Part shown: positions 5,311 through 53,373 of the stretch, piece by piece | Layout: each line of letters begins with the position of its first letter | Position numbering within the stretch: the stretch's first letter is position 1 | Assembly (NCBI GenBank): GCA_951406725.2 | Contig: OX597817.1 | Span: forward strand, 50,034,001 to 50,098,000 | DNA: 64,000 nt | Origin: Octopus vulgaris | Lineage: Eukaryota | Direction: 5' to 3' | Notes under the pieces: model-generated | Told to the model about the DNA's origin: nothing | The model's database searches: none | What the model saw: only the letters and a program-made list of their open reading frames with translations | Translations under genes and position numbers: made by a program

Positions 5311-5570
5311 ATATATATATATATATATATATATATATATATATATATATATCAGAAATATTAAATTTCTAAATATCTCATAGAGATATGTACGGTGGTG
5401 GGGCGATAGAATGGTTGTATATTGTCAATTTAACGTGACAGTAGGGGATTACACCACCGCTGTTTAGCCCTAGGAAGCATCGACGCCTCCTGTCGGCTTC
5501 GACACATTTTTTCCTGTGTCCTTATATATTTACGAAGGGGAGACAAACACCCCCAGCAGCCAGGCCTGCA

Positions 5571-5617
5571 TCCAGAGACACGCATATTTCAGGATCTTTG
5601 TCCATCATCGGTCTAGA
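5571..5617 (-). ncRNA. Type I hammerhead ribozyme (copy A1)
   Basis: Minus strand: UCUAGA-CCGAUGA-UGGACAAAGAUCCU-GAAA-UAUGCGUG-UC^UCUGGA. Stems I and III pair using G-U wobbles; core has a U4C variant. Confidence 0.65.
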
Positions 5618-5643
5618 GTAGCAGAAGCCTGCCAGCTGCAGAT

Positions 5644-7256
5644 TAACTCTTTATTATAGGCACAATCACCCGGATTAAGAGGGGACATTACAATACAGGA
5701 CATGGGGTACATATAATAAAAAATCAAAAAGTATGGTATGACAATGAATTATTTATAATGAATTAATGGAATGTCTTACGAGCCCCAAAACTCGCAGTTT
5801 CATTTACACTTACAATTGTGTTATTCAGGGCGTTCGTCCGTTATGTATGTGAGTAACTTCTCCTGTTCTATAATACTTGGCAAACTTTCATACCTAATGT
5901 AATGCATTACACATACAGCTGTATACGCATTTTTCAGTTTCATTACTGTCTCTTTTTCTACAATCGCCGCCTTCACTTGGTCACCAAAAATTTTCGAATT
6001 TAACTTCACTCTAATTAGACTTTTCATATTTGCCAACTTCTTTTCAATTTCCTTGTCCTTCTTGTACAATATTATAGCTTTAAGATTTCTTCCTTTTGGT
6101 CTTCCTCCTTCCTTACATTTTTCCAGCTGTTCTTCCACTCTTCTATCCCATTCTTCCGTTATCTAACAATTTGAAGCTTCACTCGCTTTCGTTTCTGTAT
6201 CTTTCTCTTCGTGCGTTCGATCCTCCATGTCGTCGATCGACTTCTTTTTAGCTTTTTTCTTTTTTTGTGCTTTGGGTGGTAATTCCACCCGCGTTCTCTT
6301 TCTATCCTCTTTTTCTTCTGTTCTTTCCTTTCCTTTCTCCGACTCCTCACCACTTTCCACATTATCTGTAGTCACGATTTCCTCTTCCACATTCGCCTTT
6401 TGTAACTCCTCTGTCAAAGCCTCCAGTGTTATCGTTTTCTCTTGTACTTCTCTTCGCAGACACATATCCTTCATGTGGCCTCTAATTTTGCAATTGTAAC
6501 ACACTGGGGGTCTCCTCTCCACCACGACTCTGAGACGTGTCTCGTCGGGGAACACCAACTCCTCTGGGATGTTATACAGGCCTGGCATAACCCCACCACT
6601 TTAGTTCTTTCGACTTTTCCACCTTTAGTATGTCGACACTCTCTTTGCAGTTGAACACTATTGCCGCTACAATTCTTTCCATGTTCAGTTCCGGTGAAAT
6701 TTTAGTGATTCGTATTCTTACTGCCCTTTTTCCACAATAGCTAGGTAGTAACACCTATTTTTCCGTTTTCAATATTTTCGTGATGTTCCTCTTCGCTTCA
6801 TCTTCGTTTTTAAAATGAACGACTACTGTTGCGTATTTTCTACCTCTATTGTAGAAGGTAGTTTCTTCTTCAATTTCCTGTAAACACCTCTCGATTTCCT
6901 CCGCTTCTGCTGCTTCTATTCTCTTCGAAGCCACGCTCCACGTTCTGTATGTTATAATACGCTTCTCCGCCTCCTTCGCTTCGTCTTCAGGTGGTGTGAC
7001 CCTCACACAATCACCTTCCTTCTTGAAGCTGTTGAAGCATTTCTTCAAAATCTCCTTCTCGACGACCACTTCCTCCAACTGCAGTTCGCTCGCAGCCAGG
7101 CCCTTGCCTGCTGCTCCCGCATAAGTTTGGGCTTGCATACTCGAAAAAAAAACGTCCAACAATTCATTACGCCGTAACAGCTTCCACCAACGAATTCGAA
7201 CTCACAGCCGCAATACACAACAACCGTAACACAAAATAACCGACACAAAAAAAAAA
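5644..7256 (-). mobile_element. Non-autonomous Tx1/L1-like retroelement carrying only ORF1
   Basis: Flanked by a 15-bp direct repeat ctgcYagctgcagat (5629-5643 and 7257-7271). Minus-strand 3' end tgtattgt..cccctct..gtgc..aataaaga resembles the LINE end at ~44494-44520. Confidence 0.7.
5821..7138 (-). pseudogene. Disrupted gag-like/ORF1 protein (~440 aa) with CCHC zinc knuckle
   Basis: Four track ORFs join through two in-frame TAGs (6755-6757, 6163-6165) and one frameshift near 6588. CYNCKIRGHMKDMC is a CX2CX4HX4C knuckle followed by a K/E-rich region. Confidence 0.75.
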
Positions 7257-7558
7257 CTGCTAGCTGCAGATATTTGTTCCGACTTCGTAAATATATATAT
7301 CTAATTTTCAGTGAAGTTTATTCACTGATTACCAAAATCAGAAATATTAAATTTCTAAATATCTCATAGAGATATGTACGGTGGTGGGGCGATAGAATGG
7401 TTGTATACTGTCAATTTAACGTGACAGTAGGGGATTACACCAACGCTGTTTAGCCCTAGGAAGCATCGACGCCTCCTGTCGGCTTCGACACATTTTTTTC
7501 CCTGTGTCCTTATATATTTACGAACGGGAGACAAACACCCCCAGCAGCCAGGCCTGCA

Positions 7559-7605
7559 TCTAGAGACATGCATGTTTCAGGATCTTTGTCCATCATCGGT
7601 CTAGA
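7559..7605 (-). ncRNA. Type I hammerhead ribozyme (copy A2)
   Basis: Minus strand: UCUAGA-CCGAUGA-UGGACAAAGAUCCU-GAAA-CAUGCAUG-UC^UCUAGA. Perfect 6-bp stem I, palindromic stem III (ACAUGCAUGU), GUC cleavage triplet. Confidence 0.72.
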
Positions 7606-50610: not shown

Positions 50611-51168
50611 TGATGGCTGCCCCCTCGTTATCGAGTATGGCCATTGCACGAAGCTTAATCAATGTTGTTCTCGTGCAATGCCTGCACAAGAAGATATTTT
50701 TTAAAGTGAGGAAAGGCTGTGCACTGAGTCAATCCCACTCACTAAGCAACAGCAGCCATAATCCGAAAAGAAGAACAAATCAACATCATCGGTAACCGCT
50801 TAGCTGCAGGTCTTATGTCGGAGTTATCCCAGTTACCTGAGTTACCTTCTCCTAGAAGGATGCCCTAACAAAGGCTAGGAGTCCTTCACTCCTAATGGTT
50901 TAACCGCGCGATCCGGTATTCAGTCCGATTATTTCTATGTCCCCGCCTTTCTATGATACAGCCTTAAGACATTTATTGGATGGCCGTTGACTCTCAAGAG
51001 TTCCTCCACCCTTTGACGGGTTTTGATTTTCATCCCGCAGGGTGTTCAATAAACACCCTCCTCACCAAGCAAGCTTGGTGGAGTTGCCGGTTTAGTCGCC
51101 GATGACCCGACTATGCGACAGGTTGTACTGGGTTACATGTTACCAGTAGCACTCGAAAGTGACCTGAC
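50611..51168 (-). mobile_element. Non-autonomous RTE-related element
   Basis: Minus strand contains tagcctttgttagggcatccttctaggagaagg, resembling RTE 5' UTR motifs as I recall them; 3' end ...gcagccatcat is similar to the RTE end at ~58800. Confidence 0.5.
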
Positions 51169-51839
51169 ATATACAATTATACATGCATACATACATACAT
51201 ACATACATACATACATACATACATACATATATATATATATATATATATATATATATATATATATATAAAGACAAAATAGAATGAAAATCTACAGAAGACT
51301 TGTATTATAGGCTTAAAGAATATATTAAATCGTCATGTTAGAAAAATGTTACAGAATTTTGTGTATAGTAACATTGTTTTTGGAGAAATAACCAGTTTCG
51401 TATTCTCTTTTCAAATTTCACAAATTTCTTTACCGATATTGTGTCATCTCTTCGCTGGTTTTTTTCATTCTATTTTGTTTTTATACATCCAACCACGTGC
51501 TTTTAGAAGCCAACTCTCTCACTCATATATATATATATAATTCCTCTATTTACATAATATCGAGGTCTCTTTCTTTCTTTGTTGTTTTACCGTTTTTATC
51601 AATATACATATGTATGTATATGTATGTATGTATATATATATATATATATATATATATATATATATATATATAGTGGTTGTATACCGTCAACGTAACGTGA
51701 CAGTCCCGTATGGGAATTACACCACCGCTGTTTAGCCCTAGGAAGCATCGAACGCTTCCTGTCGGCTTTGACACATTTTTTCCCTGTGTCCTTATGTTTG
51801 TGAAGAGGAGGTAAGCACCCCCACCAGCCAAGATTCACA

Positions 51840-51886
51840 CCTCAGGACATGCATGTTTCTGGGTCTTAACCCGTCATCAGCCCAGG
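51840..51886 (-). ncRNA. Type I hammerhead ribozyme (copy B1)
   Basis: Minus strand: CCUGGG-CUGAUGA-C-GGGU-UAAG-ACCC-A-GAAA-CAUGCAUG-UC^CUGAGG. Canonical core, palindromic stem III. Confidence 0.8.
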
Positions 51887-52176
51887 ATAGGGAGATCTGC
51901 TGATTGAGGAGCCTGTCCAGCCTTCACAAACATATATATTTACAGAGAAATGTAAATATATATGTTTGTGAAGGCTGGACAGGCTCCTCAACCATGCGGG
52001 ACTGTCACGTTAAGTTGACGGTATACAATCACTCTATCGTTCTACCACCGCTCATGTCTCTTTCAGACATCTAGAAATTTAATATTTCTGATTACGGTGA
52101 TCAGTGAATAGATTTCACTGTAAATATATATGTTTGTGAAGGCTGGACAGGCTCCTCAATCAGCAGATCTCCCTAT

Positions 52177-52223
52177 CCTGGGCTGATGACAGGTTAAGAC
52201 CCAGAAACATGCACGTCCTCCGG
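52177..52223 (+). ncRNA. Type I hammerhead ribozyme (copy B2, slightly degenerate)
   Basis: CCUGGG-CUGAUGA-CAGGUUAAGACCCA-GAAA-CAUGCACG-UC^CUCCGG. Confidence 0.7.
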
Positions 52224-53373
52224 TGTGAATCTTGGCTGGTGGGGTGCTTACCTCCCCTTCACAAACATAAGGACACAGGGAAAAAATGTGTCAAAGCCGA
52301 CAGGAAGCGTTCGATGCTTCCTAGGGCTAAACAGTGCTGGTGTAATTCCCATACGGGACTGTCACGTTATGTTGACAGTATACAACCACTCTGTCGCTTC
52401 ACCACCTCTCATGTCTCTTTGAGACATTTAGAAATTTAATATTTCTGATATATATATATATATATATATATATATATATATGCACGCACACACACACTCA
52501 CATATATACATGTGCATATATTTGCATGCATTTATATGCAGTATTGAAATTCAAGCCATCATAAGATGGGCGTATAAGTATATTCTTTAAAGAGTAATTC
52601 ATGTTATAAGTTTATTATAATATATTATATTTTGTTAGAAATCACGACGTGGGTTTGCACCAGAAATTCATATTACATATATAACAGGCATGTTAACAAA
52701 ATGCCAGCTCTTAACATTAAAACGAAAACTAAGACACATCAAAATAGATTTATTGCATATGGATTACTCTGTAAAGCATACACCTAATCTGCCGAATAAT
52801 CTTGTGTATTAAAATGGCTCAAACTTAGTTACACTGTATATTGAATTTTTATCTCTCCTTCTACGGAGTAATTTTTGTTGATCCTACCAATAACGGAACT
52901 GTAAAGAAGTAAATGATATGCAGTAGAACTTCGGTTTACGAACAACTCTAATCCCGAATAAATCGTATTTTATCTCCTGTCTTTCTCCTATTCATTTAAT
53001 ACAGTAGTACCTCGGTTTACGAACGCCTCTGAGCACGAATAAATCGTGCTTTATATATATCTCTATCTATCTATCTATCTATCTATCTATCTATCTATCT
53101 ATCTATCTATCTATCTATCTATCTATCTATCTTCTGTCTGTCTGTCTGTGTCCCACTGAGTAGCATCTTTGGTGGGAGGTGGTGGGGTCTTCTACTATAG
53201 CTTTGGTTCGACCAAAGCCATGTGAATGGATTTGGTAGACGGAAACTGAAAGAAGATTTTCGTATGTGTGTATGCACTTGTGAATGATTGAATGCGAGTA
53301 TGTGTCAATGACATTGTAAGTATGTATACATCTAACTCCTTATTTATTTTCACTTTAATATTACGCTCAACAC

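Follow-up and report, generated by a model that had tools for sequence, protein, structure and literature searches.

What four hammerhead ribozyme motifs are doing in one stretch of Octopus vulgaris DNA, and how the repeat that carries them moves, is the question raised by the window analysed here, i.e., the whole 64,000-nt stretch at positions 50,034,001–50,098,000 of contig OX597817.1 (GenBank assembly GCA_951406725.2). An earlier note, made from the letters of the window, had described the motifs as a retrozyme-like tandem repeat family. The explanation that we regard as probable is that they belong to a non-coding hammerhead retrozyme, likely copied into AT-rich DNA by Penelope-like elements (PLEs), and that an L1-group long interspersed nuclear element (LINE), likely of the Tx1 clade, has inserted repeatedly just upstream of the hammerhead.

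Hammerhead motifs in the window

Four type I hammerhead motifs, each with C(U/C)GAUGA, GAAA, and GUC elements, were present at 5571–5617 (−), 7559–7605 (−), 51840–51886 (−), and 52177–52223 (+), and both these motifs and the 357- and 358-nt monomers of the earlier note were confirmed. All four share one layout, consisting of a stem I of 5–7 bp, C(U/C)GAUGA, a stem II of 3–4 bp, GAAA, a self-complementary stem III, and GUC. Stem III is an exact palindrome in the 7559 motif and in the 51840 motif, the latter with a CUGAUGA core. The 5571 motif (CCGAUGA core) departs from its family at two positions, and in the 52177 motif stems I and II have decayed along with the palindrome; because of these departures, both copies may be inactive. 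The Infernal-type search proposed in the note came back empty, as Rfam gave no match at gathering scores in the window and no hammerhead at E-values up to 10 in 51600–52500, where its matches were miRNA families produced by the inversion hairpin described below. Among the isolated 47-mers, the hammerhead was not the minimum-energy structure (z from −0.64 to 0.46), folding being uninformative at this size, while the full 357-nt A monomer folded into a strong structure (z = −6.9), in which a long stem carries the ribozyme at its tip. Two more minimal hammerhead-like cores at 34040–34070 (+) and 45260–45296 (−) showed no BLAST relation to the repeat and are possibly remnants of PLE pseudo-long terminal repeats (pLTRs).

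A dispersed retrozyme family

The repeat falls into two subfamilies, A and B, which are 75% identical, in line with the divergence originally noted. The full A monomer lies at 52093–52449 (+); it is 357 nt long and non-coding, with a predicted cut after 52217 and family termini near 52390 and at 52449. Its last nucleotide (m357) is joined head-to-tail to its first (m1) at 21 junctions in 30 A loci, and 10 such junctions were found in 30 B loci for the 358-nt B monomer. The genome-wide search suggested in the note, run on DNA over 2.8 Gb, returned 2852 candidates, 40 of which were scored. Exact 26-nt core patterns matched 58 times for A and 53 times for B, against 0 for a reversed-pattern control, and the hammerhead core is therefore not a chance occurrence. 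Head-to-tail units thus exist as claimed; long arrays were not seen, and the copies are dispersed partial tandems. After three duplicate loci per subfamily were dropped (30 to 27), the longest continuous runs were 648 nt in A and 596 nt in B, corresponding to at most 1.8 units in 54 loci. The monomer has no ATG-initiated open reading frame (ORF) above 76 aa, and its GC content is 42–45%. At junctions chosen by a neighbouring LINE end (see below), five related families (A to E) could be distinguished. The repeat is a dispersed, multicopy, non-autonomous non-LTR retrozyme family.

The original division into three loci proved wrong on closer inspection. The first two are a single B insertion on the minus strand, split by a nested 1.6-kb element: the 3' unit (monomer 66–358) lies at 5351–5643, its fixed terminus abutting (AT)n, and the upstream part lies at 7257–7608, running from the hammerhead to the monomer end at 7608–7337 and continuing with monomer 1–80 at 7336–7257. 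The A insertion consists of an inverted arm at 51672–51954 (−; monomer 17–298), the internal terminus of which abuts (AT)n, followed by a partial upstream unit of joined fragments at 51951–52092 (+; monomer 27–70, then 257–357) and the full monomer. A further insertion at 15046–15301 lacks a hammerhead and comprises a short inverted arm and a direct 3' fragment. The repeat was also contained in contigs of three presumed-RNA runs and in those of one run of unknown type, contigs that carry no end, strand, or circle information. B copies spaced by about 4 kb on contig C29 were considered as composites and rejected, because they are segmental repeats containing a different LINE fragment. Octopus retrozymes were not the subject of any paper surfacing in full-text literature searches, which did not extend to supplements, Repbase, or Dfam, where the families may be filed; the retrozyme itself is a fresh member of an already known class.

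Insertion anatomy

Free 3' ends fell at m292–306 or within the last 7 nt of the monomer in 37 of 40 cases for A, where the loci were best matches of a query ending at m357, a choice favouring that end, and in 33 of 43 cases for B. Only 1 of these 83 ends lay near the predicted cut. The 3' termini of the family are thus fixed at monomer positions ~298 and 357 and do not coincide with the ribozyme cut. Many loci carry a head-to-head inverted arm, and the insertion sites are (AT)n or AT-rich DNA. PLE insertions have been described as partial tandems with an inverted copy and a tail (PMC8557442), and an anole PLE has two internal reverse-transcription starts (PMC11167929). The two fixed ends and inverted arms of the retrozyme match this tail, inversion, and internal-start pattern, giving it a PLE-type insertion anatomy in which partial tandems, inverted arms, fixed tail ends, and microsatellite targets were all found.

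Covariation in the ribozyme

Core positions 3 and 8 form the C3-G8 tertiary pair of the hammerhead. In 62 motifs selected by LINE junction (2 of 64 rows were dropped as stemless), this pair was C3-G8 in 38, U3-A8 in 13, U3-G8 in 10, and C3-A8 in 1. Stem II alternates within subfamily B between A-U and G-C (63/62 versus 19/20 of 82 copies, a set partly picked by core pattern that may include overlapping fetches). Stem III was self-complementary in 50 of 55 motifs, exactly so in 30, and took the form of seven different palindromes. In the window copies, stem III formed no hairpin alone, and its self-duplexes ranged from −4.5 to −13.3 kcal/mol. The compensated stems, the C3-G8/U3-A8 exchange, and the seven palindromes across the families imply that the hammerhead fold is probably under selection. 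The palindromes also match the dimer model proposed for metazoan hammerheads (PMC4209133; PMC7229834). Accordingly, anatomy and covariation lend good support to the earlier note where it characterises the repeat as a non-LTR retrozyme with a dimer-type hammerhead, likely mobilised by PLEs; the reading of the note as a whole is upheld in part.

The same covariation bears on an alternative in which the hammerheads are vestigial and the repeat is a SINE-like passenger of PLEs, made from uncleaved linear transcripts with no circle. Such an account would fit the anole PLE, where mutating the hammerhead left in vitro insertion unaffected and the cut was not the end point of any read (PMC11167929), as well as the near absence of genomic ends at the cut, the nearly fixed U4C change in B, and the fact that overlapping arms are also obtainable from two RNA molecules. 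However, the selection on the fold argues against it, as does the frequency of copies longer than one unit, though long source arrays were not seen. We consider it unlikely that the hammerheads are vestigial.

Penelope-like elements and the repeat

The presence of PLEs in the window, as claimed in the earlier note, was borne out by fragments of two families at 17003–17893 (−) and 29650–30591 (−), each represented (by the family or a relative) by about 14,000–15,000 genome candidates; these fragments do not share the repeat. One of the two families has many identical copies with open frames of 800–1000 aa, suggesting recent activity. Another observation concerns the 3' untranslated region of a PLE family (loci L197–L226), in which a split hammerhead-like motif has a very long stem II and which terminates at a fixed point ahead of (AT)n. 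Single copies of family C or D were located near PLE fragments at three loci (L207, L215, and L232).

The repeat could in principle be the mere pLTR of an unsampled autonomous PLE, its short copies being 5'-truncated ends of that element. The termini, inversions, and microsatellite targets are as in PLEs, coverage of the monomer's 3' half in contigs is some 100 times that of its hammerhead half, and Xenopus retrozymes are reported to be homologous to PLE pLTRs (bioRxiv 10.64898/2026.07.22.740005). Moreover, the PLE sample was small, consisting of 50 loci of the two abundant families plus a single locus in which a frame of 811 aa is open. Nevertheless, neither A nor B served as a pLTR in any of these 51 loci, and none of the 136 loci (out of 196) that hold A or B had a PLE ORF adjoining the repeat, PLE ORF matches there being at least 507 nt distant. 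Within this sample of 51 PLE and 136 repeat loci, nothing thus bore out the possibility, raised in the note, that an autonomous PLE has this repeat as its terminal repeat and that it is nothing more. The 31 direct end-to-start monomer junctions, which an element of the form pLTR-ORF-pLTR would not give, and the absence of an ORF from the monomer likewise make a pLTR origin improbable.

A LINE nested at the hammerhead

The element nested between the first two hammerheads of the earlier note, which had overlooked it, is an ORF1-only L1-group element of 1.6 kb at 5644–7256 (−), resembling the half-L1 (HAL1) type. Its zinc-knuckle ORF is broken (6755–7201, 6163–6600, and 5821–6162) and is open over 462 aa in another locus (L070); named homologues came from Octopus bimaculoides. 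The element is flanked by a 15-bp target-site duplication on the minus strand, the 3' copy of which (5629–5643) is identical to the 5' copy (7257–7271) at 14 of 15 positions. Among 215 candidates genome-wide, all 19 copies with both ends had target duplications of 14–22 bp (control maximum, 12), and the duplicated sequence agreed with the local target family. An ORF1 alone and target duplications, the features of HAL1-like elements, were thus both found. A reading of the 1.6-kb piece as a PLE body was rejected because of its own duplications and its presence at unrelated sites.

At 36 of 65 distinct ORF1-only junctions, the 3' end was succeeded by a hammerhead-like motif, compared with 128 of 5000 random windows (2.6%) for the same expression, and in 54 of 55 cases the hammerhead core started 27–38 nt past the AATAAAGA end. 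Inspection of the remaining junctions revealed 3 mutated hammerheads, about 7 tandem re-insertions, and 1 U2 small nuclear RNA (snRNA) site. In one copy (L085), an additional target duplication of earlier date is present at the 5' junction, which suggests that transcription had read through from a source retrozyme.

The same site and the same duplication are used by a 5.4-kb element (L166; a shorter copy is found in L161), which encodes an ORF1 homologue together with APE, RT, and zf-RVT domains, an L1-group organisation of ORF1 plus ORF2 that is also the one of Tx1-clade LINEs. Its closest solved structure was human L1 ORF2p (E = 3e-43; R2 reached 7e-22 or weaker). A hammerhead followed 22 of the 30 best autonomous 3' ends, one of which is the query and some of which are neighbours, and the others comprised 2 mutated hammerheads, 2 tandem re-insertions, 1 U2, and 3 other sites. 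Both this ratio and the 36 of 65 for the ORF1-only element exceed the level of 20% of flanks in one target type used for target-specific elements (PMC4494074), with the reservation that they describe best matches and are no census. The insertions in L130 and L195 directly precede whole U2 genes, placing the site at the U2 snRNA 5' end. In the region around L195 (L194 and L195; contig C3, 20.81–20.84 Mb), the autonomous LINE forms an array at a U2 snRNA gene, in which the copies are separated by duplications of both U2 type and family D type.

Since APE-type target-specific LINEs are either Tx1 or R1 (PMC4640811), Tx1 is the likely clade of the autonomous element, as judged from its domains and target. 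No named Tx1 reference was retrieved for it by homologue, atlas, or cluster look-ups, and a metagenome scan found no relatives. From the common 3' end and site, we infer that the autonomous LINE may act as a helper of the ORF1-only element. Full-text literature searches, with supplements, Repbase, and Dfam outside their reach, surfaced no paper on a LINE targeting a hammerhead repeat. The window also holds the 3' part of another L1/Tx1-like LINE related to L166 (43745–44560, +), which ends in AATAAAGA and not at a hammerhead.

Repeated targeting and probable re-copying of composites

ORF1-only elements 93–96% identical to one another occupy B targets on the one hand and C or D targets on the other, with target identities of 0.67–0.69, within the shuffled range. 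Tandem re-insertions at the same site occurred for both the ORF1-only and the autonomous elements. Some composites have also moved as units. At two loci (L146 and L120), the inversion breakpoint lies within the ORF1-only element on both arms, and both outer ends of the former lie in (AT)n, at monomer positions 290 and 357; a third (L072) is truncated within the ORF1-only element and has no upstream repeat. Because of these structures, it is likely that the PLE route served to copy a composite retrozyme-LINE RNA, the template being either a circle or two RNA molecules. From the distinct 5' leaders and target families, we estimate roughly ten independent LINE insertion events.

A single origin of the composite, spread by PLE copying only so that apparent targeting is mere descent, would account for these re-copied units and for the clustering of target labels on the element tree (27 changes versus a shuffled mean of 37.6, approximate counts because four rows of other families were mislabelled B), but is largely refuted by duplications that always match the local target family and is made very improbable also by near-identical elements in unalignable targets and by a distantly related autonomous LINE, tandem re-insertions, and insertions at U2 genes that all make use of the same site.

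Proposed mechanism and its weak points

For a PLE-copied retrozyme targeted by a Tx1-like LINE, the following course can be envisaged. In two-unit transcripts, cleavage would be by a dimeric hammerhead formed through the palindromic stem III, and ligation into circles would follow. PLE reverse transcriptase would prime internally at two fixed points on both nicked strands, reading back across the cut site, and such internal starts and read-back would result in partial tandems and inversions. The LINE endonuclease may recognise a loosely defined sequence, similar to the U2 snRNA 5' end, within the 5' arm of the long stem enclosing the ribozyme. Insertion there would spare the hammerhead and the 3' signals, so that a composite could be re-copied by the PLE route.

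Several points weigh against this explanation. U4C is nearly fixed in subfamily B (74 of 82 copies) and a U·U stands at the stem II base, both of which may lower activity; some U3-A8 cases (TTGACAA, 5) may reflect CpG decay. Cleavage and circle formation by the octopus retrozyme are predictions, and of nine Xenopus retrozyme dimers tested, one cleaved (bioRxiv 10.64898/2026.07.22.740005). Identity within loci is nearly equal to that between loci (0.939 versus 0.932 in A; 0.959 versus 0.940 in B), which is weak support for one circular template. No partner PLE sharing the repeat was present among the 51 PLE loci, out of the many candidates per family, and the sole link is a weak lead: in one PLE family, 18 of 30 loci end 3' in a short, similar AT-rich motif ahead of (AT)n. 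Regarding the LINE, about 15 of 64 ORF1-only junctions were at unrelated sites, and PLE re-copying of composites inflates the junction counts. The ORF1s of the ORF1-only and autonomous elements are 26–32% identical, with almost no DNA similarity, and the autonomous element is therefore no more than a candidate helper.

A more far-reaching version, which we put forward tentatively and regard as doubtful, is a three-tier parasite chain. A Tx1-like LINE lineage would move between the U2 snRNA 5' end and several diverged retrozyme families, and its ORF1-only passenger, using retrozyme transcription, would make of the 357-nt retrozyme a self-cleaving, circularising, protein-coding RNA of ~2 kb that is spread by two unrelated reverse transcriptases, those of LINE and PLE.

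Other features of the window

A dispersed SINE-like repeat of 184–190 nt, often in two or three tandem copies, occurs at 8577–9060, 18767–19250, 23381–23975, 25076–25313, 37240–37650, 45907–46499, and 61545–61847. RTE-like LINE fragments lie at 11940–13359 and 54302–55599, and a direct duplication (48605–49227 and 49510–50060; spacing, 833 bp) has identical ORF translations. A 195-aa open frame at 59238–59825 (−) resembles ankyrin repeats by reading of its translation.

Relation to known systems and significance

The octopus family resembles the non-LTR retrozymes of other animals in its type I hammerhead, weak palindromic helix III, thousands of candidate loci, and non-coding monomer of 357–358 nt and 42–45% GC, a length within the 150–450 nt of this class. 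Mytilus retrozyme repeats measure 350–390 bp, and axolotl HHR_Amex2 also has a U·U at the helix II base (Cervera and de la Peña 2020, PMC7229834); the word "cephalopod" does not occur in the main text of that paper. The octopus family, known here from genomic DNA, differs in its mostly fewer than two units, inverted arms, two mapped termini, and site-specific LINE insertions. With PLE pLTRs and their tails (PMC8557442, PMC11167929, and PMC4209133) and with PLE-derived retrozymes (bioRxiv 10.64898/2026.07.22.740005), as described in these sources, it shares partial tandems, inversion of the 5' copy, 3' ends that are fixed at two points beyond the hammerhead, and (TA)n or AT-rich targets. Unlike PLEs, it has no RT or GIY-YIG ORF, and its tail is about 59 nt compared with 30–40 nt.

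Among Tx1-clade elements, Tx1L inserts in Tx1D, Tx1-Mar in Mariner-N4, and Keno in U2 snRNA (PMC4494074 and PMC4640811). The octopus LINE is like them in its APE-RT architecture of the L1 group, its fixed site in another mobile element, its long duplications, its tandem re-insertion, and the U2 target within the same lineage, but its own targets are hammerhead retrozymes of families too diverged to align, and its placement in the Tx1 clade is provisional. The U2 site of Keno and Utopia removes the first 38 bp (PMC4640811), whereas the octopus LINE at the U2 5' end leaves U2 whole. HAL1 (PMC5753468) likewise has ORF1 only, a polyadenylation-signal 3' end, and target duplications; the octopus element, in contrast, inserts at a specific site, is only distantly related to the ORF1 of the autonomous element, and was likely moved again within the retrozyme by the PLE route.

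Tx1 elements in other transposons or U2 and ORF1-only HAL1s were already known (PMC4494074, PMC10294476, PMC10886601, and PMC5753468). Each ingredient thus has a precedent; what is unusual in the octopus system is their combination, and the mechanism is not new. The mobility of animal retrozymes has so far been inferred mainly from their co-occurrence with PLEs, and in the octopus the copies themselves are marked by PLE-type insertion; as two start points have been mapped, a defined RNA can be used to test the link. The nested LINE brings in a target class for which the literature searches surfaced no report and a putatively sequence-tolerant APE endonuclease acting on both retrozymes and the U2 5' end, and the composites suggest that PLE machinery is able to carry a cargo of at least 1.6 kb within a retrozyme.

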